The position numbers were made by a program, and so were the translations under genes. Under the pieces are notes generated by a model that saw only the letters and a program-made list of their open reading frames with translations, had not been told where the DNA came from and did not search any database. Positions 47,147-60,130 of a stretch of 64,000 bases of DNA are shown piece by piece. The stretch lies in assembly GCA_038214755.1 (NCBI GenBank), contig JBBQRQ010000002.1:32001-96000 (forward strand), in the 5' to 3' direction. Source of the DNA: Verrucomicrobiota bacterium. GTDB taxonomy: Bacteria; Verrucomicrobiota; Verrucomicrobiia; Limisphaerales; CANJXF01. Within the stretch, counting starts at the first letter, position 1, and every line of letters begins with the position of its first letter.

Positions 47147-48541
47147 TCAGTCTTCAGCGCGCTCGCCATGCGGCGCCATCTTCACGAGCTTCGGATCGAA
47201 TTGGCCGATCGTTTCCACCAAGTCGGATTGCGCAGCCATGACCGTATGAATGTCTTTGTAAACCATCGGCGCTTCGTCAAGGCCAGCGGAAATGAGCGTC
47301 ACTCCGCGTTCGCGCAGAAATTGATTCACTGCTTTCCAATTGAAAGTTTGCGACGCGCGAGTGCGGCTCATGACACGTCCCGCTCCATGCGAAGCAGAAT
47401 GCAAAGATTCAGCATTCCCTTTTCCACGAACAACAAATCCGGGGGTCGCCATTGAGCCAGGGATTATTCCCAACACACCCGTGCCCGCTGGCGTGGCACC
47501 TTTGCGATGCACCACGACCTCACGCTCTACGCCCTCGATAACGTGCTTTTCTTTCCAGGCAAAGTTGTGGTGGTTTTCCAGATCGAGCAAGACCTGCGCG
47601 CCGAGATTTTCCGCGATGTGTTTATGAATGCAGGCGTGATTCGCGGCGGCGTATTGTCCCATCAATTCCATCGCGTTCCAATACTCCTGCCCTTCCTGCG
47701 AATCGAGCGACAACCACGCGAGCCGCTTCAATTCGCTCGGCAAATCGGGAAACTGGCTGAACGCGATCTTGCTGTAGTAATCGCAGACCGACGCGCCTGT
47801 GCCGCGACTCCCGCTGTGTGACAGCAACGCCACATAAGTGCCCGGTTCCAATTCGTTGATTTTCGAGTGCGCCGTGAATAGACCAAACTCGACAAAATGA
47901 TTGCCGCTGCCGCTCGTGCCGAGTTGCGACCACGCGCGGTCTTTGTTTTGTTTCGTAATTGGACTGACCGACCAGTCCGCGTCGAGCACGCCGTGGTGGC
48001 GACGCTCCTTGAAATTCGCGCCGATGCCGAAGCGCGTCTCCGCTTCGATGGCGCGCGTGAGCCGGTCCTGCTTGCGTTCCAGATCGCGCAACGGCAGATC
48101 GAGCACCGTCATCTTCATGCGGCACGCGATGTCCACACCAACGGCGTAAGGAATCACCGCGTTCTCGGTGGCCAGCACGCCGCCGATGGGCAGGCCGTAG
48201 CCCACATGCGCGTCCGGCATGAGCGCGCCCGCCACCGAGATCGGCAACAGACACGCCTTTTCCATCTGCATCACCGCCTCATGTTCCAAACCTTCGCCCC
48301 ATTGCCGATACTTCACCGGCTCGGCGCGCGGCGGCGGTGGCGCATGGAGCAACGCCTTCGCAAGCTCGCCGCGCAATGCGTCATCCACGAACGCCGCCGG
48401 ATTGGCGACAATGGCCGCGACATCTTCGTGCAACCGCGACTTGTCGCCGCCGCCGAGGATAAACTTGCAAACAAAATCCGTCGCGCGCCGGGTGGCCTCG
48501 CCGAGCGGAACTCCCGTTCGTAAAAAATCTTTCGCATTCAT
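47147..48541 (-). CDS. rtcB: RtcB family RNA ligase
   Basis: 'MPDAHVGYGLPIGG', 'VGVDIAC', 'GTSGSGNHFVE', 'HSGSRG', 'HHN', 'HRKGAT', 'PGSM', 'HGAGR', 'DEAP..YK'. Confidence 0.96.
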   Translation of the reverse strand: MNAKDFLRTGVPLGEATRRATDFVCKFILGGGDKSRLHEDVAAIVANPAAFVDDALRGELAKALLHAPPPPRAEPVKYRQWGEGLEHEAVMQMEKACLLPISVAGALMPDAHVGYGLPIGGVLATENAVIPYAVGVDIACRMKMTVLDLPLRDLERKQDRLTRAIEAETRFGIGANFKERRHHGVLDADWSVSPITKQNKDRAWSQLGTSGSGNHFVEFGLFTAHSKINELEPGTYVALLSHSGSRGTGASVCDYYSKIAFSQFPDLPSELKRLAWLSLDSQEGQEYWNAMELMGQYAAANHACIHKHIAENLGAQVLLDLENHHNFAWKEKHVIEGVEREVVVHRKGATPAGTGVLGIIPGSMATPGFVVRGKGNAESLHSASHGAGRVMSRTRASQTFNWKAVNQFLRERGVTLISAGLDEAPMVYKDIHTVMAAQSDLVETIGQFDPKLVKMAPHGERAED

Positions 48542-48575
48542 AACAAAATTGCTTCTCCCGGTTTGAGGCGGAAAC

Positions 48576-49868
48576 TCACTTTTGCGCCTTGCTCAACTCC
48601 GATTCGATCTCCTCGACCGTCGGCAGGCTGCCCTTCAGATTCTTCGGCAGGGATTCGACGAGCTTGGTCTGCCATTGCGCGACGCCGATGGGCTTCTTCA
48701 AATCGCGCAACGCATATTCCACCGTCAAGTTGTCGCGCTCCTTGCACAGCAACAGTCCGATAGACGGCTTGTCATCTGCGTGACGCAACTGATCGTCCAC
48801 GGCGGAGAGATAGAAATTCATTTTACCGGCGAACTCCGGCTCAAAGGCTTTCATCTTCAAATCGATCACCACGTAGCTGCGCAACCGCAGATGATAGAAC
48901 AACAGGTCGAGATAATAATCCTGCCCGCCAATTTCCAGGTGAAACTGCCGTCCCACGAACGCAAACCCGACGCCGAGCTGAAGCAGGAACTTCTGGATGT
49001 GATCCAGCAAACCCAATTCAAGGTCGCGCTCATGCGCGTCGGCGCGGAGCGTGAGGAAATCGAAGGTGTAAGGGTCTTTGAGCGTCTGCTCGGCCAGATC
49101 GGATTGCACCGGCGGCAACGTGCGCTGGAAGTTCGTAACCGCCTTGCCTTCGCGTTTGTGCAATTGCGCTTCGATGTGGTGCGTCAGCACCGCGCGTGAC
49201 CAGCCATGCTCGACGGCTTTGCGCGCATACCAAAGGCGGTCAGCGGCGGATTCGAGTTTTTGCAGCAACACAATGTTGTGACCCCACGGCAGCGAAGCCA
49301 TTGGTTCGGGCGGAGCGGCAAATTCTGTTGCAGGCTGTGACAGTTTTTGCGCCGGGAATTCTCTTACAGCTTGTGAGAGAATCTGCGGTTCGGATTCTCC
49401 AAGTCGCTGAGGAAGAATCGCCTCCTCCGGCAATTGTCGCACAAGCTGTGCGACAATTGCCGAACCCGACTGAGCAGCCGCCTTTTTCCCGCCGCCCGGT
49501 AATTGTCGCACAGGTTGTGCGACAATTGCGTTCGCCGGTGCATAACCCAGGAAGAACGCCCTCATGCGATAAAGATTCTTGCGAGAAAATCCTGCCATCT
49601 CGGGGAACTCCTCGGTCAAGTCATGCGAGAGGCGATCAAGCACGCGGTCGCCCCATTTGTGCGTTTTCTGTTGTTCAACGATGGCTCTGCCAATGTCCCA
49701 ATACAACGCGATCAGCTCGCGATTGACGGAAACCGCCGCGCGAAGTTGCGACGCGCGGACGCGCATCTTGAGGTCGGCGAGAATGGTGGCGTAATCGGCA
49801 GGCAATGCGCTGGACGCTTTGCCGCCGATGGCTTTTGCCAAGCTGATGGTTGATTTCTTTTTCGCCAT
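48576..49868 (-). CDS. DUF1016/YhcG PD-(D/E)XK nuclease family protein with repeat-expanded linker
   Basis: 'VNRELIALYWDIG', 'GFSRKNLYRMRAF', 'LPWGHN', 'KDPYTFDFL', 'DLLFYH..LR..VVIDLK', 'GKMNFY'. Confidence 0.93.
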   Translation of the reverse strand: MAKKKSTISLAKAIGGKASSALPADYATILADLKMRVRASQLRAAVSVNRELIALYWDIGRAIVEQQKTHKWGDRVLDRLSHDLTEEFPEMAGFSRKNLYRMRAFFLGYAPANAIVAQPVRQLPGGGKKAAAQSGSAIVAQLVRQLPEEAILPQRLGESEPQILSQAVREFPAQKLSQPATEFAAPPEPMASLPWGHNIVLLQKLESAADRLWYARKAVEHGWSRAVLTHHIEAQLHKREGKAVTNFQRTLPPVQSDLAEQTLKDPYTFDFLTLRADAHERDLELGLLDHIQKFLLQLGVGFAFVGRQFHLEIGGQDYYLDLLFYHLRLRSYVVIDLKMKAFEPEFAGKMNFYLSAVDDQLRHADDKPSIGLLLCKERDNLTVEYALRDLKKPIGVAQWQTKLVESLPKNLKGSLPTVEEIESELSKAQK

Positions 49869-49937
49869 ACCCAGAGTTAGCCGGTGATTCCTGGTTGATG
49901 ATGTTAAAGGTGGATTGGGTTGAAAAGCCTTTCCAAA

Positions 49938-49990
49938 CGGGCAGCTTCACCCAGCGGCACACCGAGAGGAATAAAATCTTTAGTGTTCAT
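49938..49990 (-). pseudogene. orphan duplicate of the rtcB 5' end
   Basis: ATGAACACTAAAGATTTTATC-CTCGGTGTGCCGCTGGGTGAAGC = MNTKDFI/LGVPLGEA versus rtcB MNAKDFLRTGVPLGEA. Confidence 0.85.
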
Positions 49991-50032
49991 GAAAAATGCG
50001 TTTCAACAGGAACAGTGCCACCACCACCAAGC

Positions 50033-51166
50033 TCACGCTATCGCTTGGCGCAATTCGCCCGGCGAAACAATTGAAAGTTTCAGCCTATCCTGAACCCGCT
50101 CATACGCCGGGCCGTTCAATGGGCTGACCACATAGTTTTTCCCTTTTGGATACTGTTCGCGAAACGCCGCCAGCCCGCGCGTTTCAAACGCATCCGCTTT
50201 CCATTTGCATTCGATGGCGTCAACGGCATCGCGGCCGCGCGGCACGACGAAGTCCACTTCGCGCTGCTGTTTGTCGCGCCAGAAATGAATCTTCGGCAGA
50301 TTGGCGGCGATAAGGGTGTCCAGCACGAGATGCTCCCACAACACGCCGCAATCCTCCGTTCGCAAATGATCCCAGCCGCGCGCGTGGCAGACCAACCCCG
50401 TGTCAAAACCGAACACCTTCGGCTGCGCCACGATCTCCCGCCGCCCGCCTGCTGAAAACGGACGCACCAAATGCGCCACATGCGTGATCTGATAAACCTC
50501 CAGCCAGTTCGTGACGGCAGGCCGGCTGATCTGGCTTTCGGCGGCCAGCTTCGTCACGTCCAGCATCCCGCCGCTTTGGCGCATCAACAATTCCAGCACG
50601 CGCAGAAAACCGGCGCGTTTCTCCAGCCGGAAAAGCTCCTGGACGTCGCGCGCGAAATAGGAATCCTGCCACTCGGCGTAGAATTCTGGATTGTGTTTCT
50701 CCGCGAGCAGCGCGGGCGGCAATCCCCCGCGCAACAAACGTTCCCGCAAATCCGTCACGCCGAACGCCGCCAATTCCTCGTGCAACACCGGCACCAGCTG
50801 CACCACCCGCTTGCGCCCCGTCAGGCTGTCGCGGAACTTTTGCGTGGCCGCGAGCGTGGACGAACCCGTCGCCAGGATTTTCAATTTGGGAAAATCATCC
50901 GCGCCAATCTTCAACAGCCGGCTTGGATCGGGAAGCTGATGCACCTCGTCGAACACCACCAGCCGCTTTTTCACGGAACGGAAAAAACTCTCCGGATCGC
51001 GCAGCCGTTCCGCCACGCTGGGCAGGTCGCAGTTGAGAAACTCCGCGTCGGGAAAGCTCTGCGCCAGCACCGTCTTGCCCGCGCGCCGCGGCCCGCTCAG
51101 CCAGACAATGGACGCCTGTTTCCACGCGGCGACGAGCCGTTCAGTCCAAAAAGGTCGGTCAATCAT
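50033..51166 (-). CDS. AAA_14 ATPase with DUF4143 domain
   Basis: 'GPRRAGKT', 'FDEVH', 'TGSS', 'SLTGR', 'GGLP', 'PKVFGFDTG', 'REVDF', 'IECK'. Confidence 0.9.
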   Translation of the reverse strand: MIDRPFWTERLVAAWKQASIVWLSGPRRAGKTVLAQSFPDAEFLNCDLPSVAERLRDPESFFRSVKKRLVVFDEVHQLPDPSRLLKIGADDFPKLKILATGSSTLAATQKFRDSLTGRKRVVQLVPVLHEELAAFGVTDLRERLLRGGLPPALLAEKHNPEFYAEWQDSYFARDVQELFRLEKRAGFLRVLELLMRQSGGMLDVTKLAAESQISRPAVTNWLEVYQITHVAHLVRPFSAGGRREIVAQPKVFGFDTGLVCHARGWDHLRTEDCGVLWEHLVLDTLIAANLPKIHFWRDKQQREVDFVVPRGRDAVDAIECKWKADAFETRGLAAFREQYPKGKNYVVSPLNGPAYERVQDRLKLSIVSPGELRQAIA

Positions 51167-51172
51167 GGCAGG

Positions 51173-51208
51173 CAGACTTTACGTTTAGACGGCTAAAAGT
51201 AAAGTCTG
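51173..51208. promoter_or_regulatory. inverted repeat directly upstream of the DUF4143 ATPase (putative operator)
   Basis: cagactttacgtttag-acgg-ctaaaagtaaagtctg. Confidence 0.5.
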
Positions 51209-51300
51209 GATTCGGCGCGCGGCGTTTACGCCGCTTCAACTCCCGGCTGTTGAGCGCCGCAGAGATGCCTCACGATGTCGTGCGGTGAAGCGGACTGAAC

Positions 51301-51540
51301 TTTGAATCCCAACGGGATTCCAGCGTTCAGCCAAAGGTTGCGACGAAGGAGCTATCTTGGGTTCGCATCCCAAAATATCCACAACCCCAACGCGGGTTGC
51401 ATCGTTTTCATTTATCCGTTTCTGATTCACGGGCGGACGCAACTCCTTCAGAGTTGAAATTCTTTTTTCACGTTTTCCCAGGGTAGCTCGTTCCTCGCAA
51501 CCTTGGGCTGACTGACGAAATCCCGTTGGGATTTTCAAAA
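51301..51540. repeat. composite palindromic repeat (aatcccaacgggatt family)
   Basis: aatcccaacgggatt / caaccccaacgcgggttg / caactccttcagagttg / aatcccgttgggatt, nested inverted arms; same family at 60325-60597. Confidence 0.8.
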
Positions 51541-51615
51541 GCATGAGCCGTCGCGCGCCGCGTGGCTTCACCCGGCGGCACGTCTTGGCGCGCCGAAGTT
51601 GGACGCAAGGGGGGA

Positions 51616-51643
51616 CGAGACGGAGAAAATCTTTGGCGTTCAT
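51616..51643 (-). pseudogene. second orphan duplicate of the rtcB 5' end
   Basis: ATGAACGCCAAAGATTTTCTCCGTCTCG = MNAKDFLRL. Confidence 0.75.
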
Positions 51644-51713
51644 GTCAAACAAGGGTCGTCCTCCCATTCGAGAACTTGCGCGTTCGTCGCCCCCGTCATG
51701 TCAGCCCACGTTT

Positions 51714-52454
51714 TCACAACCAAATGTCCGTTCCTGCGGCGAGCCAGTTCGGAACCATCTTCTGATGCTGCCAGTGTTCGCTTTGCTGCACCTTCTCCAC
51801 AAACTCCGGACGGACCAGTTTGGCGCGGCCTGTCACATAGCCGTCGGCCTCACTGCGAACGTAAAGTCCTTCCATCAAATTGTCGGTCTTGCCCGTGATT
51901 GGATTTTCAAAAGCGCTGTCAAACGCCGATGGCACGATGAGCGATTCCAGTTCGTCTGCCTTGGCGCGACCGCGATGAACGATAGGCACAGTATGAAGGC
52001 CGGTTCCGTCCAACATTCGCTGACGAGCGGCGAGGTCGAGAAACTGCCCGGCGTCCTTGTCGTAAATGTCGAACTCGAAAAAGTAATGCGGTAGCTTGCA
52101 ATAGTGGACGGAGTGCTTCGCGTAGAGCCATTCGCCGTAGAGGATAAACTGATTACCGAGCATTCCTTCGAGGACTGGGCGCTTCACCGAAGTCCACTGC
52201 TTGAAGAGATCATATTGCGGATGCATGCCCTCGGTAATTTCGTGACCACGGCATTGCAGCACCATGCGTCCACGGGACGTGAAATGAATTCCAACGTTCG
52301 TGCCATCAATCTTCTCCGCCACAATCAACGAAGGGTCCGCGATCAACCTCTCAGATTCTTTTTGGCCAAGATGTTTGTCGCCAGCAGTTCCCTTCGACCC
52401 GAACAGATGCGGTGTGCGTGGGTATTTGATAAAATCATCGCGGGTCGCTCCCAT
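51714..52454 (-). CDS. ATP-dependent RNA ligase family protein
   Basis: 'KYPRTPHL', motif I 'EKIDGTN', 'LYGEW', 'FDIYD', 'EGLY', 'RAKLVRPEF'. Confidence 0.88.
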
Positions 52455-52520
52455 AGCAGTAATCGAGTTTGGTTGAATTAAGTTGGGAGAGCGAGCTTTG
52501 ACGCCCGCTCTCCCGTTGTT

Positions 52521-52591
52521 TCATTCGTTCAAGAACAGTTTCCACTCCGTGATGCCGTGGGCGTTGCGGAGGAGCGCCGTGACCGGCAGTT
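52521..52591 (-). pseudogene. orphan duplicate of the HNH gene 3' end
   Basis: encodes LPVTALLRNAHGITEWKLFLNE* versus LPVTALIRNAHGIAEWKLFLNA* at 53946-54016. Confidence 0.9.
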
Positions 52592-52619
52592 TCCCGCCTT
52601 GCGCGACCGTGGTACGTTT

Positions 52620-53867
52620 TCACAGACAAGACCACGGGAGCGCCGTCACCTTGTCGTGTATTTGCAGCGGCTGACGGCAGCGGCAAATGATGTAGGCGTG
52701 CTTCGCGTGTTTCGGATGTTCACCCAAGAACGTCAGGAGATGACGCGCGTCGGAGAGCGTCGGGTTCTCCGTCCATTTCACTTCAATCGGCGTCAGGCCG
52801 CCTTCGCGCTGGATGATGAAGTCCACTTCCGCGCCGTCATGGGTGCGGAGGTAATGCAACGTGCCCGTGCCAAGGTATTGCAGGCGTTTCCAAAGTTCGA
52901 CTCCCACCCATTGCTCGAAGAGCGGGCCGGGATTCGCCAGCACCACATCGGTGTTGGGCCGCAACCCGGCGGCGGCGTGGCGGATGCCGAGGTCGAAGAA
53001 CAGGAAGCGGTCGGTGGAGAGCAGATTTTTTCGCGGGCTGCCGGAATATGCTGGCAGACGGAAGCCGAGAAACATGTCTTCCAAAAGCTGGTAGTGGCTC
53101 TTGATGGTCGGCACGGACAGGCCTACGTCCTTGGAAATTTTGTGGTAGTTCACCATCTGCCCGGACTCGACGGCGGCGAAGCGCAGGAAGCGCACGAACG
53201 CGGGCCAGTCCTTCACCATCGCTTCGCGCCGCATTTCCTCCTCCAGATGAAGTTGCGTGTAGGCGTGCAACATCTCGGCGCGATGCGCTTCGTCAGCGGT
53301 GACGACGCCCGGGAGTTCGCCGAAGGCGAGTCGTGTGAGCAGGTCGGCGCGCGGAAATGGTTTCGTCGGGCGCTTCCCGTCCGGCCAGTCGAGCGGCAAC
53401 GGCGGCGGGGCGTCAAACTCAGCGGGCGATTCGGCAGGCGGGCGTTCAGTCAGCGTGAGCGGAAAAAGGCGGTGCAAAAAGCTGCGGCCCGGCAGAAGGT
53501 TCGCGCCGGTCTGCCGCAACTTGCGCGCGGAACTGCCGCAGAGGATGAACCGCCAGCGTTTCTTGTCTCCGTCGTAAAGATGCTGCACGGCGTCGAACAG
53601 CGCGGGCACGTTTTGCGCCTCGTCCACGAACACCCACGCGCCGCCTTCGCGCTGTCGCAGGCCACGGCAAAGTGCGATGAGGTCGTCCGGGTGGTTGAGA
53701 TATTGCGCCCGCACCTTCGGAATGGAGAGGTCAATGCGCGCGGCGTGCGGCGGCAGGAGATTCTGAATGAGGGTGGATTTGCCCGTCTGCCGCGCGCCGA
53801 ACACGATATGCACATACGGGGCGGCGAACTTCTTTCGCCAAAGGGATTCGGGCCAGCGGGTGAACAC
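52620..53867 (-). CDS. AAA_14 ATPase with DUF4143 domain
   Basis: 'GARQTGKST', 'VDEAQ', 'CGSSARKL', 'LLPGR', 'FFDLG', 'AEVDF', 'IEVK'. Confidence 0.9.
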   Translation of the reverse strand: MFTRWPESLWRKKFAAPYVHIVFGARQTGKSTLIQNLLPPHAARIDLSIPKVRAQYLNHPDDLIALCRGLRQREGGAWVFVDEAQNVPALFDAVQHLYDGDKKRWRFILCGSSARKLRQTGANLLPGRSFLHRLFPLTLTERPPAESPAEFDAPPPLPLDWPDGKRPTKPFPRADLLTRLAFGELPGVVTADEAHRAEMLHAYTQLHLEEEMRREAMVKDWPAFVRFLRFAAVESGQMVNYHKISKDVGLSVPTIKSHYQLLEDMFLGFRLPAYSGSPRKNLLSTDRFLFFDLGIRHAAAGLRPNTDVVLANPGPLFEQWVGVELWKRLQYLGTGTLHYLRTHDGAEVDFIIQREGGLTPIEVKWTENPTLSDARHLLTFLGEHPKHAKHAYIICRCRQPLQIHDKVTALPWSCL

Positions 53868-53881
53868 GGCTTGGTTTTAAT

Positions 53882-53917
53882 CGCCTGTTATTGAAAGTCA
53901 ACTTTCAATAACAGGCG
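53882..53917. promoter_or_regulatory. perfect 16-bp inverted repeat upstream of the second DUF4143 ATPase
   Basis: cgcctgttattgaaag-tcaa-ctttcaataacaggcg. Confidence 0.55.
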
Positions 53918-53945
53918 TTTAATGAAAACGCGATTCGCGCGCACC

Positions 53946-54203
53946 TCAGGCATTGAGGAACAGTTTCCACTCCGCGATGCCGTGCGCGTTTCGGATGAGC
54001 GCCGTCACCGGCAGTTCCTTCGGCGCGCGCGGAACGTTGAGCAATTTCAATACGGCTTCGTGCGGCAGGCGGTTGCCCTTTTTCGAGTTCACCGCTTTGT
54101 TCGCCCAGACGCAATTCTCCCACGCATCTTTTCCGCCGCGCGAACGTGGCAGGATATGATCGATACTGCCTTCCTCCGGCTTCAGAATTTTGCCGGTGTA
54201 TTG
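53946..54203 (-). pseudogene. HNH endonuclease, 5'-truncated
   Basis: 'QYTG.......SIDHILPRSRGGKDAWENCV......NSKKGNRLP'; upstream sequence is tRNA-like rather than coding. Confidence 0.85.
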
Positions 54204-54224
54204 GACCAGCCTCCCGGAATTGAA

Positions 54225-54302
54225 TGGTGCGGCAACCGGGAGTTGCACCCGGACGAACGGAAGACTTGCAGGTCGCCGCCTGGGCTACTCGGCTAATAGG
54301 AC
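54225..54302 (-). tRNA. chimeric/degenerate tRNA-like gene (Cys-GCA-like 5' half fused to a different 3' half)
   Basis: GTCCTATTAGCCGAGTAGCCCAGGCGGCGACCTGCAA|GTCTT...CCGGG-TGCAACT-CCCGG-TTGCCGCACCA; acceptor strands do not pair. Confidence 0.55.
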
Positions 54303-54310
54303 ATCAATCG

Positions 54311-54560
54311 TTACTCTCGGAAGTAATGATCGCGCCGACTTCCGTCATAGCAGCCAGACTGCAATCAACAATTTTTGAAAGCTGCGTCCTGAGCCGCACG
54401 AACAAAGATCGTTGCGTCCGAGCTTTTCATGAAGCTCCTTAGTTCCATAAACGATGCGGGAACCTTTTTTCAAGCGAGTTTCCGATGGATACCCTTTGCG
54501 ACGTTTGCTGGTGATCTCGAAAAAACGGGCTGTCTTGATGAACCGATTGATTTCCCTTAC
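54311..54560 (-). CDS. small SEC-C motif protein (recoded or pseudogene; absent from the ORF track)
   Basis: '[49 protein letters not shown]', then +1 frame '[20 protein letters not shown]'; 5' boundary uncertain. Confidence 0.7.
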
Positions 54561-54634
54561 GGCCTCCGGCTTAGGGGTTGTGGTTGTGAATAACTAATGC
54601 TTGAAATTTTTTCCTTCTAACGCGACAACAGAAC

Positions 54635-54757
54635 TGCGCGACGAACAGCTTTGATCCAAATACCGGCTTTGAGATCTTTGTGCCGGGGCGTGGATTGCTC
54701 CTCGGAGCAGTATTCCGCTTGCGGAAGCGCCTATCTCCTTTGAGCGTTCGCCGCGCA
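54635..54757 (-). ncRNA. candidate structured ncRNA
   Basis: 12-bp closing stem TGCGCGGCGAAC/GTTCGTCGCGCA enclosing three hairpins; lies just 3' of a tRNA-like gene. Confidence 0.55.
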
Positions 54758-54771
54758 TTTACTTTTTGAAT

Positions 54772-54848
54772 TGGTCAGGAAGCCGGCATTTGCACGCGGA
54801 CCGTCTCCTTCACAGGGAGAGATGCTGCTAATTACACCACGATCCTGA
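54772..54848 (-). tRNA. non-canonical tRNA-His(GTG)-like gene
   Basis: TCAGGATCGTGGTGTAATTAGCAGCATC-TCTCC-CTGTGAA-GGAGA-CGGTCCGCG-TGCAAAT-GCCGGCTTCCTGACCA; imperfect T and acceptor stems. Confidence 0.7.
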
Positions 54849-54945
54849 TTTGAGCGCGGAACGCAGAACGCGGAACGCGGAAAGAAAAACTCGCGCGCGA
54901 TTGATCTGATTTCCACGTTCCGCATTCCGAGTTCCGCGTTTGAAA

Positions 54946-55019
54946 TGCTCCCACGTGGACTTGCACCACGAACCTTCTCCTTCGCAGGGAGACATGCAGT
55001 TCTATTACACCTTGAGAGC
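54946..55019 (-). tRNA. non-canonical tRNA-Arg(GCG)-like gene
   Basis: acceptor GCTCTCA/TGGGAGC, anticodon arm TCTCC-CTGCGAA-GGAGA, T arm CGTGG-TGCAAGT-CCACG; A at position 8; no encoded CCA. Confidence 0.8.
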
Positions 55020-55115
55020 GGAAAGAAATTTACGATTTACGAATGACGATTTACGCGGGCAAATCCAAATCGTCAGCCGACTCGTAAATCGTAAATCCAA
55101 AATCGTAAATCGAAA

Positions 55116-55145
55116 TGGTATCCGTGGCCGGACTTGCACCGGCTA
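55116..55145 (-). tRNA. 3' half of a tRNA-like gene
   Basis: GCCGG-TGCAAGT-CCGGC-CACGGAT-A-CCA; 5' half missing. Confidence 0.65.
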
Positions 55146-55260
55146 GGTGGTGGAGATGAAGCGGTCGCGGAAACGTTTTAAAACGTCGCAAATAAAAGGA
55201 GCGGCATGACGGTGAATGAGTTGTTGATATTTTTCATAGCGGGAAAGTGGCCGGAACCCT

Positions 55261-55386: not shown

Positions 55387-55421
55387 GCTACAAATCTGAG
55401 TCGTGGCGACGGCGCGCTGCT

Positions 55422-55494
55422 CGTAGCCGCCGACGTGAGGAGGCGGATTCCGATCGGAAAACCACGAAACCGCCTCCTCACGTCAGCGGCTACA
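55422..55494. repeat. GTAG-type REP doublet
   Basis: gtagccgccgacgtgaggaggcgg ... ccgcctcctcacgtcagcggctac. Confidence 0.8.
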
Positions 55495-55540
55495 ACTTAT
55501 GAAATTTTGATGGAGCGCGAACCAGATTTTTCCCGGAGAT

Positions 55541-55939
55541 TTATTCCTTTTTCTTTTTGAAAAATCTTGGGCCAGCCTCGCCTTGTCGTTGTTGAACTTT
55601 GAGTTGGCCAAGAATGGAGACCCAACCGATAAAAATTTTATGCCATTGATTTTCCATGCTGCGGATGACGCCATCGGCCATTTCGCTGAGGTAGCGAATG
55701 GAGGGCGCGCTCGAGATCAGGGCGAGGACGTCTTCCTTGGTCGGGGAGGGGCATTCCACGGAAGCGAGGATCAACTCCATTTCCTGAACGATGACGCTTT
55801 TGACTTCGAGGAATTGGATCTCGTCTTCGCTGCTGAATTTTTTTGAGCGGGCGAGGTTGACGAAATAATTAAATTGCTTGAGGCATTCCAAATAATTTTC
55901 CAACTGCAGGATGAGTTGTTCGTGGTCTTGGTGGCGCAT
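55541..55939 (-). CDS. hypothetical helical protein
   Basis: 132-aa ORF co-oriented 5 nt after the upstream gene. Confidence 0.7.
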   Translation of the reverse strand: MRHQDHEQLILQLENYLECLKQFNYFVNLARSKKFSSEDEIQFLEVKSVIVQEMELILASVECPSPTKEDVLALISSAPSIRYLSEMADGVIRSMENQWHKIFIGWVSILGQLKVQQRQGEAGPRFFKKKKE

Positions 55940-55944
55940 AAAAT

Positions 55945-56247
55945 TTAATCGTTGTAGGGCTGAAGTCCTTTTGGTTTGAGAAAAATAATGGCTCCGCCGC
56001 GAAGCTCGCGCGCGGTGATTTTAAAGCCGCCATAACGCACGATAATTTCGGACAGAGGCAAAGCGGCCTTGCGCGCATCCTGGAATACGCCCAAAACGGT
56101 GCCGCTGATCTCGCCCATGTATTTTTGGGAGAAGGAATGCGGCAAGGTCGAGGCGAGCAAACGGCCCAGCGCATCGACGGTGAAACTGCCCGAAGGCAAC
56201 CGCGCCAGTTTCGGAATCGGTTTGGAAAAAATATTTAAGAAGCCCAT
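55945..56247 (-). CDS. small roadblock/profilin-like hypothetical protein
   Basis: ATG at 56247; 'GSFTVD..GRLLASTLP...LSEIIVRY..FKITAREL..GAIIFL' pattern. Confidence 0.55.
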   Translation of the reverse strand: MGFLNIFSKPIPKLARLPSGSFTVDALGRLLASTLPHSFSQKYMGEISGTVLGVFQDARKAALPLSEIIVRYGGFKITARELRGGAIIFLKPKGLQPYND

Positions 56248-57311
56248 TTGATTGAGATGTTTTTTAAGGTTTCGTAAAGTTGGTCCGCGCTCAACGTGCG
56301 CTTGAATCCAACGCAAAGTTCCGTGTCGCCGCGCGAGGCGATTCCTATGTGCCGCTGCAATCCCAGCCCTTCAACCTGCTTTAAATCGCCCGCCTGCAAT
56401 TTTTCTCCGAGGTCGCGCAAGCGTTTTTGGGTTTGTCGGGTCCACGCCGCGACCGGGCTGGAATTTTCCAGTCCCCAGGAATCCGGCGCGGCTTTTTGAT
56501 CGGCGGGAACGGTCATGACAAATTCCACGCCATCGATGCGCGAGAGAGCGGCCAGCGGGGAGCGCGTCAAAAATTTCGTGTCGCACGCGGCGGTTTGCGC
56601 GGAGGATTCCGAACCTTTATTCTCGTCAAAGGCCTGGGCGAAATCCAGAAGCAATCCTTGATAGGGAGTTAAGATCACCCGCACATGGTCCGGTTCACCA
56701 GGCAAAATCTCGAAGCTGCCATTTTTCCACGACAAAATTTCTTTGAAAGCTGCTTCGCCACTCATGGTCAAGGTCGCCGCATCCATCACTTCGCCATCCG
56801 TCACCCAAATATTTCCCTGCCGGCCTTCCTTCGTGATTTTCAAAACAGAGGAACTGTGCGAGAGACATTCCAATTGGATCAGATCAACCAGGCTCTTGCT
56901 TTGGATTCCGCGAAACCCGTTATCGACCTGCTGGCCGAGCAAGGATTCGATGCACTCGCGGAACAGATTTATTTCCTCTGACGTGCTGGGCTTTTCCCAA
57001 AATAAATCGATGCCCATGGCGTAAGCGCGAGTCCGATATTGTTCATCGACCACCGCCGTCATCACGACGATTCGCAGTTGAGGAAATTTCCGGCGCACGA
57101 TGGAGAGCACTTGCAGTCCATCCATCTTGGGCATCCGCAAATCAGAAATGAGCATCGTAAACGGCTCGGATTCCAGTATGGCAATGGCGCGCGCGCCGGA
57201 AGTGGAGGTGTGGATTTCCGGCTGGCTGGGCAATTGCCGGAGGACCTCCTGAAACAAATCGAGCAAGTCCTGCTCATCATCCAGCAGTAAAATTTTATGG
57301 GGTTGGGACAT
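56235..57311 (-). CDS. response regulator: REC + DUF4388/PATAN + C-terminal roadblock-like domain
   Basis: 'ILLLDDE', 'SDLRMPKMDG', 'KP'; 'GFRGIQSKSLVDLIQL...G.I....GEVMDA.....GEAAF.EILSW..GSF'. Confidence 0.85.
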   Translation of the reverse strand: MSQPHKILLLDDEQDLLDLFQEVLRQLPSQPEIHTSTSGARAIAILESEPFTMLISDLRMPKMDGLQVLSIVRRKFPQLRIVVMTAVVDEQYRTRAYAMGIDLFWEKPSTSEEINLFRECIESLLGQQVDNGFRGIQSKSLVDLIQLECLSHSSSVLKITKEGRQGNIWVTDGEVMDAATLTMSGEAAFKEILSWKNGSFEILPGEPDHVRVILTPYQGLLLDFAQAFDENKGSESSAQTAACDTKFLTRSPLAALSRIDGVEFVMTVPADQKAAPDSWGLENSSPVAAWTRQTQKRLRDLGEKLQAGDLKQVEGLGLQRHIGIASRGDTELCVGFKRTLSADQLYETLKNISIKWAS

Positions 57312-57429
57312 TGGTCTTGAAAATCAGGACATTTTAATTTGGCGCAAAAAATGCGAACCGCACAGAACGAATGAAAATGCAATCAGTGAAAATAACCGCG
57401 ACAGCCACACTTTATTAAAGGTTAAAAAC

Positions 57430-59028
57430 ATGTTTGGATCACTCAAAAAATTATTCCGTAAGGACATGGACGCTGGCCTAGCTACTTCTATTCCAGAGAC
57501 ATTTCATTCCACCGCAAGCCCCTCGTGGGCGTCGCGTCCGGATGCGCCCGCCACCATGACGTTTTCTCCCGAAATTCTCGCCCCTACTCCTTCTCTTACG
57601 GGAGTGGCAAGTTCGGTCGAGATTGTGGCATTGCCGGTGAGAAGCATCCTGGCTTCGTTGCCCAGTACGCTAACTTCTCTTGTCCAATCTCAGGGCAACG
57701 GCTTTGTCAACCTGTCCGCAAAGCGGATTTTGCAAGAGCTACCTAAGGGTTCGGTAAAACTTCCTTTTGCCGAAATTCGGCACGCCGCTCCCAATGGAAC
57801 TTTTTTCGACAACGCGCGTTTCGATCAGATGCTGATCGAACTGCCGCTGGCCGAAATTTTGTCGCGGCTCCATCCTTCTCTCTTGTCGCGCCGCGCCAAT
57901 CAAAAACAAACTTTTGTCTCGCTGGAAGTCACCAATATTTTCGGTCCGCGCGGTCAGGGTATTTCGATTAGCCAGCCTGAGAGATCGTTCAAGCCCGCGC
58001 CAGCAGTCGGTGAGACGACGAATGCCCACGATGCGACGCCCACCGCCATGCCGACGTTGGCCATGCCAATTGCAGTTCCAATCGTGTCTCACGTTCCGCA
58101 ACTCCGAGTGCTGCCCCCCGAACCTGCGCTCGCCGGAAATGCGGATCGGCTGGAAATCCCGATCGCCGCTCTTTTCGAAAAATGGCCGCAAGCCATTCGG
58201 AGGGAGATAGCGGAATCTGATTTGATTCAGGCAACGATTTCTTTTCCGATGGACAAGATTGAGCCGTTACTGAAAGCCGGAAAAATTATTTTTACCTGGC
58301 AACAAATCTGCCAATGGATGCAACCGCGCGTCAAAAATGTTTCCGCCGAAGAGGATCTGCCCCTTGAGTTGCCGCTCGAAATCGTCGCGCCCCTTTTTAT
58401 GGCGCAACACCGCCCGGCCAAAGCACAGAAGAAAATTTCCATGGGCGAAATCCCGGACCTGTTCACCAACCTCAAAACGGAGCGAGTCGCCGTTTTGAAA
58501 CACGAAATCACCGCGCCGGTCCTGCACCTGGAATCCATCGCGGCGCCTCCGAAAATAAAACCATTCGTGATGCCCGTGGCAGTAGAATCTGTTCCTGCGC
58601 CGGTTGAAATAGAACCGGCGGTCGCGCCGATCCAGCCAGAGAATCCGGTCGGAGAAATTTTTGGGCGCGCGGAAAAACAGGATTGGTCACCCGGCGAGAT
58701 CGTGAAAAATTTGGCGGCAATGCCCGACTTGGATGGAGCATTCATCGCCATGCAGGACGGGCTGCTGGTCGCAGCAGAATTACCGGGGAAATTCAAAGCG
58801 GAAACGGTCGCCGCTTTTCTCCCGCAAATTTTCGGACGCATGAATCAATACGCCAAAGAGCTTCAACTAGGCGGTCTCTCCAGCCTGGCTTTCGAAGCGG
58901 AAAACATTTCCTGGCAAATCGTGAAGGCAGAAGGCGTCTATCTCGTGGTGCTGGGCAAACCGGGCCGGGATTTACCGAAGGCAACACTCAACACAATCGC
59001 GAACGCAGTCAGCAAACAGATTCAATAA
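57430..59028 (+). CDS. Pro-rich multidomain protein with C-terminal roadblock/LC7 domain
   Basis: C-terminal 'LAAMPDLDGAFIAMQDGLLVAAELP...AAF......ELQLG'; two internal homologous segments. Confidence 0.75.
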   Translation: MFGSLKKLFRKDMDAGLATSIPETFHSTASPSWASRPDAPATMTFSPEILAPTPSLTGVASSVEIVALPVRSILASLPSTLTSLVQSQGNGFVNLSAKRILQELPKGSVKLPFAEIRHAAPNGTFFDNARFDQMLIELPLAEILSRLHPSLLSRRANQKQTFVSLEVTNIFGPRGQGISISQPERSFKPAPAVGETTNAHDATPTAMPTLAMPIAVPIVSHVPQLRVLPPEPALAGNADRLEIPIAALFEKWPQAIRREIAESDLIQATISFPMDKIEPLLKAGKIIFTWQQICQWMQPRVKNVSAEEDLPLELPLEIVAPLFMAQHRPAKAQKKISMGEIPDLFTNLKTERVAVLKHEITAPVLHLESIAAPPKIKPFVMPVAVESVPAPVEIEPAVAPIQPENPVGEIFGRAEKQDWSPGEIVKNLAAMPDLDGAFIAMQDGLLVAAELPGKFKAETVAAFLPQIFGRMNQYAKELQLGGLSSLAFEAENISWQIVKAEGVYLVVLGKPGRDLPKATLNTIANAVSKQIQ

Positions 59029-59040
59029 AGGAAACAACGT

Positions 59041-59652
59041 ATGGCAATTATCAATCAGGCAACCAAAGAGCTTCAGGTAAAAATCGTTTACTACGGCCCC
59101 GGTCGCGGTGGAAAAACGACCAACCTCGAACAACTGCACAGCAATGTGCAAAACGTGCAGGAAAAAGGAAAACTCGTCTCGCTGGCGACCAGCTCCGACC
59201 GCACGTTGTTTTTCGATTTCCTCCCCATCGAAGCGATGTCGATCAAAGGTTTCAAAACCAAATTTCAACTCTACACCGTGCCGGGACAGGTCATTTATAA
59301 CACGACGCGCCAACTCGTTTTGCGCGGCGTGGATGGCATCGTCTTTGTGGCCGATTCGCAATACGACAAGATGGCCGAGAACGTGGAAAGTTTCGCCAAC
59401 CTCGAAGAGAACATGAAGGCATTGAAGTTGAACCTGGGCGACATCCCGTACGTTCTGCAATACAACAAGCGCGATTTGCCCAACGTGGCGCCAGTGGAAT
59501 ACATGGATTTTCTTTTGAACAATCGCGACGTTCAAGTCCCGTCGTTCCCCGCCTGTGCGACCCGATGCGAGGGCGTCTTCGACACGCTCAACATGATCAC
59601 CCGGCTGTTGCTCCATAAATTTATCAACGAAGGAACGCGCAAAGTGGCTTGA
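59041..59652 (+). CDS. mglA: MglA-family small Ras-like GTPase
   Basis: 'KIVYYGPGRGGKTTN', 'RTLFFDF', 'YTVPGQ', 'GVDGIVFVADS', 'NKRD'. Confidence 0.95.
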   Translation: MAIINQATKELQVKIVYYGPGRGGKTTNLEQLHSNVQNVQEKGKLVSLATSSDRTLFFDFLPIEAMSIKGFKTKFQLYTVPGQVIYNTTRQLVLRGVDGIVFVADSQYDKMAENVESFANLEENMKALKLNLGDIPYVLQYNKRDLPNVAPVEYMDFLLNNRDVQVPSFPACATRCEGVFDTLNMITRLLLHKFINEGTRKVA

Positions 59653-59653
59653 T

Positions 59654-60130
59654 ATGTTCAGCCTCCCCCCATTGCTCGAGGAGGACATCCAGTGCATGGA
59701 ATCCGCTCTGGACGAACTGCTCCAAAAAAGCGAAGCGACCACCGCGCTGATCATCGACAAAGGCGGTCCTTTGATCACCCAGCGCGGAACGCTCAACGCT
59801 TTCGACACCACGACCATGGCCGCGCTGACGGCAGGCTCGTTTGCCGCGAGCGAAGCCATTGCAGGGTTGGTGGGCGAATCTTATTTCAGCAGTGTTTACC
59901 AACAAGGCGAGCGCCAGAGTTTATGGATCGGAAATGTTGGCTCTAATTTATTGGTGATCGTGATTTTCAAAGCCTCCCTCGGCGTCGGCGTCGTGAAATA
60001 TTTCGCGGTGCAGACGACTCAACGCATCGCCGCCCAGATCAAAAAAGCCCGGTCGCGCACCGATGAAAATTTGGATTTGGTCTCGCTCAATCTCCTGGAT
60101 TCTTCGGAGCTTTTTAAAAAGAAAGCTTGA
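59654..60130 (+). CDS. mglB: MglB-family roadblock/LC7 protein
   Basis: 'LIIDKGG', 'AALTAGSFAASEAIAGLVGE..F...YQQGE', 'LGVVK'. Confidence 0.88.
   Translation: MFSLPPLLEEDIQCMESALDELLQKSEATTALIIDKGGPLITQRGTLNAFDTTTMAALTAGSFAASEAIAGLVGESYFSSVYQQGERQSLWIGNVGSNLLVIVIFKASLGVGVVKYFAVQTTQRIAAQIKKARSRTDENLDLVSLNLLDSSELFKKKA

Follow-up and report, generated by a model that had tools for sequence, protein, structure and literature searches.

In Anabaena/Nostoc PCC 7120 the trn operon, a long array of tRNA genes on one strand, is induced by translational stress together with rtcB, and 23 of its 26 tRNAs are charged; the accessible part of the same report names Verrucomicrobia among the phyla with long tRNA arrays, or L-arrays (PMC8421152). 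Irregular tRNA polycistrons are characterised, in the portions of the reports available, by 8/4 and 9/3 stems (PMC5389517, PMC7609411), and bacterial Y RNAs (Yrn1, YrlA) are described in the accessible text of two further papers as associated with Ro60 and RtcB (PMC4201824, PMC7790460). In addition, GOLLD, ROOL, T4 rnaC/rnaD and the raiA-motif RNA are pseudoknotted, closed by a terminal stem or stable, and lie in or near tRNA clusters, as far as the available sections go (bioRxiv 10.1101/2024.12.08.627333).

Here we analysed a stretch of 64,000 nucleotides (the window) from a bacterium of the Verrucomicrobiota, order Limisphaerales, whose genome (G000) is 97% complete. By comparison with its intact relatives, the locus studied is the collapsed copy of a horizontally moving L-array, and within it lies the gene of a 121-nt non-coding RNA (ncRNA), most likely on the opposite strand. 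We put at roughly 0.8 the probability that the anatomy of the locus and the plus strand of the ncRNA are both as described below.

Anatomy of the collapsed tRNA array

Intact relatives of the locus hold 25-30 tRNA genes with an A18/G55 elbow, among which SEC-C, Ro60 or rtcB-like genes are embedded, and they finish, with varying completeness, in genes for an HNH nuclease, an ATP-dependent RNA ligase and RtcB; the complete order array-HNH-ligase-rtcB is present in one genome (G261). Loci retrieved through the SEC-C gene and the ncRNA gave the internal order Phe, second rtcB-like gene, Glu, Arg(GCG), Thr, His, (RNA), (SEC-C), (Ro60), Cys, Gly ... Gln, HNH. Of this series the window retains the 3' half of Glu, then Arg, His, the ncRNA, the SEC-C gene and a Cys/Gly fusion that runs directly into residue ~110 of the 194-aa HNH, so that its tRNA content comes to 2 whole genes and 3 halves. 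Read against the intact order, at least 3 deletions shaped the window, one of the 5' half, one from Cys to Gly and one from Gly to the middle of HNH. The 5' half of Glu and the array upstream of it are gone, the N-terminal part of HNH was deleted together with the second half of the array, and neither the upstream array half nor the leader was found anywhere in the G000 assembly. In intact arrays this leader is a conserved stretch of ~600 nt before the first tRNA (L130, L133, L135, L138, L142, L143), whose several hairpins and terminator-like element make it a candidate attenuator or further structured RNA; a single generic hairpin was all that G000 matched of it.

The original prediction, made from the letters of the sequence, had listed a tRNA-like half, Arg(GCG)-like and His(GTG)-like genes, a structured RNA, a SEC-C reading frame, HNH, an RNA ligase and rtcB, and these parts were located where it had put them (Table 1), the structured RNA by a fold much better than those of shuffled sequences. 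Its "more tRNA-like pieces" are indeed tRNA-like, but form the single fusion of a Cys 5' half with a Gly 3' half; its HNH carries PF13395, but only the C-terminal ~84 of 194 residues; and the compact module that it proposed turns out to be the remnant of a 25-30-tRNA array after several deletions. The partial decay that it assumed is visible in these deletions and in the broken His, SEC-C and HNH genes, but does not extend to the two ligases, which look intact: both frames are open and the motifs are present. To judge from their sequences, the ligases, Arg(GCG) and the ncRNA are the only parts that look whole. The aligned motif residues of RtcB we take to be catalytic; the RNA ligase has no relative of solved structure at E<=0.001. 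In His(GTG), two T-stem pairs are disrupted with respect to 14 array copies.

The tRNAs of the arrays are indeed atypical, as had been proposed, and are so throughout the family. In a set of 98 distinct array tRNAs, drawn from 11 loci in 9 genomes, 97 have G55 and 82 have AG replacing GG in the D loop, a pattern to which the Arg and His of the window conform. In comparison, U55 is found in 48 of the 51 ARAGORN calls of G000 and in 22/24 Anabaena trn tRNAs, 23/24 of which have GG in the D loop. The G000 calls include the locus and also a separate His(GTG); the window tRNAs are extra to a full housekeeping set. No description of A18/G55 arrays was found in the literature searched, which here and below means papers open without subscription; the 8/4 and 9/3 stems of irregular polycistrons are a different feature (PMC5389517, PMC7609411). 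In most array His(GTG) genes U-1 replaces G-1 and A73 replaces C73, and a second type with C73 exists.

The predicted relationship to the stress-type tRNA arrays that come with HNH and rtcB is borne out by the whole order in G261 and by the HNH itself, a homologue of which adjoins the trn operon in Anabaena (all8564; 42% over 79 aa, pairwise E 8e-21). The two kinds of locus share a long same-strand tRNA array, an adjoining homologous HNH, rtcB nearby and a patchy spread. However, HNH lies downstream here and upstream in Anabaena, the tRNAs are G55/AG here and U55/GG there, and the verrucomicrobial arrays add the ATP-dependent ligase, the frameshifted SEC-C gene and the antisense RNA, with the window copy collapsed besides. 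Many same-strand tRNA genes are typical of the relatives, as in L035, with 16 ARAGORN calls by default and 29 at a lowered threshold. Linkage to the ligase is loose: homologues of the ligase with 67-85% identity occur in 20/300 genomes of the order, and in the 20 loci around them, some of which stop at contig ends, a tRNA array lies upstream in 4, HNH is present in 6 and rtcB in 5. Neither the ligase nor the SEC-C gene was found in 6 genomes of the same genus, and the array is patchily distributed.

Short duplications accompanied the cargo genes into the window, where the terminal 59 nt of HNH are present twice and the start of rtcB three times. Duplicates of gene ends stand beside cargo (the 3' end of HNH and the 5' ends of rtcB and the ligase) at window positions 52533-52591, 51629-51643 and 49976-49990, and also in L130 and L040; that such duplicates flank cargo suggests a repeated route of insertion.

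Table 1. Features of the array remnant and its cargo, in window coordinates
Feature	Position	Strand	Evidence
Array-type tRNA-Glu(UUC), 3' half (T arm, acceptor strand, CCA)	55116..55147	-	97% match to the Glu(UUC) 3' end of intact arrays
Array-type tRNA-Arg(GCG), A18/G55 elbow, stems intact	54946..55019	-	Rfam tRNA 48.4 bits; 96% identity to the G067 copy
Array-type tRNA-His(GTG), A18/G55 elbow, A73, without G-1	54772..54847	-	ARAGORN
Double-pseudoknot ncRNA, body 54636-54756 (121 nt), then U-rich tail	54636..54767	+	Alignment, covariation; model match 136.5 bits
Predicted ncRNA promoter: upstream box 54586-54595, TTG-type -35 54601-54606, extended -10	54586..54635	+	
Small SEC-C (zinc-knuckle) pseudogene, +1 shift sites at UUU near 54522 and 54378	54311..54558	-	30 loci compared
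Fusion of tRNA-Cys(GCA) 5' half and tRNA-Gly(UCC) 3' half, deletion scar	54225..54302	-	Halves match neighbouring Cys and Gly genes in G241
Array HNH nuclease, C-terminal ~84 residues	53946..54203	-	Aligned to the 194-aa HNH of G261; PF13395
Cargo AAA_14/DUF4143 ATPase, first copy	52620..53867	-	
HNH 3' end (59 nt), second copy, after the first AAA_14/DUF4143 gene	52533-52591		
ATP-dependent RNA ligase, open frame, KxDG motif	51714..52454	-	PF09414, E 1e-33, 117 bits
rtcB 5' stub (from 51643), then genome-wide inverted repeat	51300..51643	-	
Cargo AAA_14/DUF4143 ATPase, second copy	50033..51166	-	
Second rtcB 5' stub	49930..49990	-	
Cargo YhcG/DUF1016 PD-(D/E)XK nuclease	48576..49868	-	
RtcB RNA ligase, open frame, aligned with Pyrococcus RtcB at the Asp, Cys and His motifs	47147..48541	-	PF01139, E 7e-87

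Several families of genome-wide inverted repeats occupy the spacers of the locus (55420-55496, 55025-55118, 54850-54945, 51300-51535). A host cluster adjoins the array remnant at 55541-60130 and encodes an MglA-type GTPase, two Roadblock proteins and a DUF4388 response regulator. Elsewhere in the genome (G000:C5:74642-75220) the array HNH has a full-length paralogue of 40% identity, near which no tRNA was called.

Fold, probable strand and spread of the non-coding RNA

Read 5' to 3' on the plus strand, the ncRNA has a ~15-bp stem joining its ends, a two-helix arm with an internal and a terminal loop, 0-3 variable hairpins and a conserved hairpin; the 3' strand then pairs with the internal loop (4 bp) and next with the terminal loop (5 bp), which makes two pseudoknots. 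In a MAFFT alignment of 53 sequences that was not fitted to this structure, 94.2% of the cells are paired, compared with 34-43% in slid controls, and 24 of the 44 pairs show change on both sides. A further 30 and 9 more distant sequences agree, in alignments that were fitted to the model and lean towards the structure. Compensatory variants of four kinds were seen for pseudoknot 1 (14/96 sequences) and of two kinds for pseudoknot 2 (4/96), where the counts are of sequences and not of independent events and the pseudoknot parser favours pairing. Covariation shows the predicted fold to consist of a long end stem and a core locked by two pseudoknots.

The ncRNA is very probably encoded on the plus strand, opposite to all other parts of the locus. 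An upstream box stands at -45 to -52 in 47 of 51 distinct regions, and 24 of 29 genome loci have it too; TTG- and extended -10-like elements come after it, spaced as for sigma-70 but with loose -35/-10 patterns, and a U-rich tail lies downstream in 24/29 genome loci. Moreover, 35/76 of the 4-nt loops predicted on the plus strand are of stable types (CUUG, UNCG, GNRA), as is 1/66 of those on the minus strand. The box, which is doubled in 12/51 regions, resembles the DnaA-box consensus and may be such a box; a scan of G000 gave no clear DnaA-box cluster for comparison.

Several observations weigh against this anatomy, fold and strand. Misassembly may have occurred at the deletion joints. One pair of pseudoknot 2 is broken in 5/96 sequences. 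Folding energies and pair counts do not settle the strand: the window copy folds better as the minus strand (-54.3, z -4.0) than as the plus strand (-50.3, z -2.6), the plus-strand fold is the better one in only 53/83 sequences, the counts of G-U and A-C are even (43 and 47), and a generic sigma-70 promoter scan finds no site here.

The original prediction had read the structured RNA as a member of the minus-strand series, and while it is structured, the promoter, the U-tail and the tetraloops place it most likely on the plus strand. That it is nevertheless a unit of a minus-strand polycistron, in a compact repair module with two ligases, would agree with the good folding of the minus strand, with read-through of the array, which would copy the ncRNA, and with the HNH, ligase and rtcB genes that follow the arrays in some relatives. 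We consider this very unlikely, since the plus-strand signals are also found around stand-alone copies and since the locus is compact because of its deletions.

A compact double pseudoknot with near-invariant unpaired bases could also be that of a ribozyme that cleaves itself or acts on tRNA precursors and whose products RtcB or the ligase joins, possibly into a circle because the ends are held together. RtcB joins the ends left by self-cleaving ribozymes; in addition, the ncRNA abuts the 3' end of His in 11/92 loci. However, no Rfam ribozyme matches at E<=5, the RNA has a promoter and tail of its own, its opposite orientation precludes trimming of the tRNAs in cis, and the link to the ligase is not firm, so that we regard a ribozyme as unlikely. 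In L164, L198, L192 and L195 the ncRNA abuts only the 3' part of an array His gene, which may be decay or an integration scar.

The family runs to ~100 distinct sequences of ~110-165 nt in at least 3 phyla. Covariance models found it in 34/150 genomes of the order, as a single copy in 30 of them, in 2/149 other genomes of the phylum, in 2/101 genomes sampled around an Acidobacteriota record and in 2/101 around a Bacteroidota record; the single cross-phylum hits could be binning errors. It was not found in samples of 121 and 81 genomes from two more phyla, nor in 4 genomes of the same genus. A pattern scan of metagenomes returned at least 120 stretches, and among the 80 listed the model confirmed 55 as members and 25 as non-members, while the same kind of scan of genome contigs gave 43 matches with only 2 members; the named records with close copies are labelled Verrucomicrobia, in keeping with the verrucomicrobial origin assumed in the original prediction. 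Among viral contigs, three patterns gave 6 matches and no member, and BLAST against phages and plasmids gave no match to the ncRNA and only single-tRNA matches to the array.

No Rfam family matched the ncRNA at E<=5 or <=1, in the window or in 18 homologue loci, the only overlap being CyVA-1, on the other strand of one locus and below its cut-off (23.8 against 41.4 bits), and no description of the RNA was found in the literature searched. It thus represents a family without a match in Rfam or a description in that literature, with the double-pseudoknot RNAs of phage arrays outside the sequence comparison. Among known RNAs, 6S RNA, signal recognition particle (SRP) RNA and tmRNA were rejected, as G000 has its copies elsewhere (6S 64.7 bits, SRP RNA 68.9 bits), and so were the self-cleaving ribozymes and riboswitches known to Rfam 15, for which no covariance model matched. 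Resemblances to glmS, guanidine-III, SAH and RNase P motifs were dismissed, none of these having scored in Rfam. Y RNA and YrlA were rejected as well, with no match of the ncRNA at E<=5 or <=1, though YrlA models score at other loci; this, together with the failure to find Ro60 in G000, leaves the suggested Ro60/Y RNA association without a counterpart here. The ncRNA does resemble the bacterial Y RNAs in its small size, its paired ends and its proximity to genes for RNA repair, with Ro60 in some arrays, but it has no tRNA-like T arm. By context its nearest kind would be GOLLD and ROOL, from which it differs in being much smaller, chromosomal, driven by its own promoter and antisense to the array (bioRxiv 10.1101/2024.12.08.627333). 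The ncRNA model found nothing in the Anabaena trn region, and its score did not exceed 14 bits in the region of the T4 tRNA cluster.

Additionally, the surroundings of the ncRNA speak against the claim that it is part of the module: it is most likely a separate opposite-strand gene, and 72 of 92 loci have no tRNA in the DNA examined, often only 1.5 kb a side. The RNA could then be a passenger with an unrelated host function, or a small mobile unit, which arrays collect as cargo. This would suit its patchy spread, with no copy in the same genus and ~2% in other groups, and the abundance of unrelated cargo in arrays. Against this stand its repeated occurrence in arrays, where it follows His in some and Cys, Gly or HNH in others, always antisense (13/13 loci with at least 2 tRNAs; 5/7 of those with one tRNA), the strong conservation of sequence and promoter, and the single copy in 30/34 genomes, and we hold a passenger to be possible but rather doubtful. 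Around stand-alone copies the flanking genes vary freely, with no shared family and no common downstream gene or direction. This bears on a further reading, in which the RNA, as a riboswitch or attenuator, would regulate a gene downstream of it, and which the order of promoter, folded domain and U-tail and the few copies directly ahead of a same-strand gene would allow; the lack of a shared target, the arrays in which the RNA runs into tRNA ends, and a closing stem that links the 5' and 3' ends and leaves no switchable local hairpin make it highly improbable.

A SEC-C gene with a conserved frame break

The SEC-C open reading frame of the original prediction does contain the motif (PF02810, 22.5 bits; cut-off 20.4), but belongs to a frameshift-dependent gene whose window copy has lost its start. 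In 29 of 30 SEC-C loci, the window included, the last two Cys are reachable only through a +1 shift at UUU, which is followed by C or U and often directly by a stop in the old frame; the sole in-frame copy is in an unpublished genome (G289). A second +1 shift near the start is required in 7 of the 27 loci with a readable start. The comparison of loci thus indicates a gene whose frame break is conserved and falls at one particular slippery codon, as in programmed +1 frameshifting. The window copy keeps both shift sites, but its lost start codon and a stop at the conserved last Cys (54365-54367) make it a pseudogene. A selenocysteine reading of this TGA was rejected because relatives carry Cys there and the start is also lost.

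The gene prfB is a programmed +1 frameshift gene, and the likeness is the conserved frame break, here at UUU; the difference is that 1-3 shifts fall within a zinc-knuckle gene of ~80 aa. GeneTack frameshift clusters include a "SecA" cluster whose insert covers a SEC-C motif, but the insert is A-rich and its sequence is another one (PMC3711429). No description of the frameshifted SEC-C gene was found in the literature searched. In 7 genomes the gene lies just upstream of Ro60, with a short conserved element between the two; upstream of it, YrlA-like RNA runs below the Rfam cut-off were seen in L061, L063 and L078.

Possible roles of the RNA and of the arrays

By analogy with the Anabaena trn operon, an intact array would be silent until translation stress and would then supply spare tRNAs, while the two ligases would mend cut RNAs and HNH would spread the block. 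The full SEC-C product would be made only when ribosomes slip at UUU, and it would in this way report a shortage of Phe-tRNA; both the shifting by ribosomes and the sensing of Phe-tRNA supply are inferred.

If the ncRNA is a plus-strand gene of its own, as its promoter and U-tail indicate, its antisense position would keep its terminator from cutting the array transcript. Its build, with paired ends, a rigid core, optional arms and a promoter of its own, matches that of a stable trans-acting RNA. We tentatively propose, at somewhat less than even odds, that it is a protein-binding decoy or scaffold of this kind, for RNases or RNA-repair proteins, tied to RNA damage. A number of results tell against such a role. 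No protein partner tracks the ncRNA: Ro60 (strong matches) is present in 5/33 RNA-bearing genomes and in 15/149 overall, the SEC-C gene in 3/33 RNA-bearing genomes (p=1), and the link to the ligase, 7/9 against 26/140 in a first sample, fell to only 2/11 in a second. Furthermore, as most copies lie outside arrays, a role in translation stress would rest on a minority of loci.

On a wider and improbable view, the arrays may be a self-contained backup translation kit that combines tRNAs of a second elbow design, a UUU-frameshift sensor and two RNA ligases with a catalytic or scaffold RNA of a new class, which would be made constantly from the opposite strand and would control or serve the kit.

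The window copy is a decayed example, and the intact relatives in G261, G004 and G241 are the better objects of study. The size of the ncRNA puts direct probing, cleavage tests and structural studies within reach. L-arrays were already known, and to them the ncRNA adds a family with a well-supported double-pseudoknot fold. Since the ncRNA, the alternative tRNA elbow and the frameshift-read gene share these arrays, they can be tested together for a part in the survival of translation damage.

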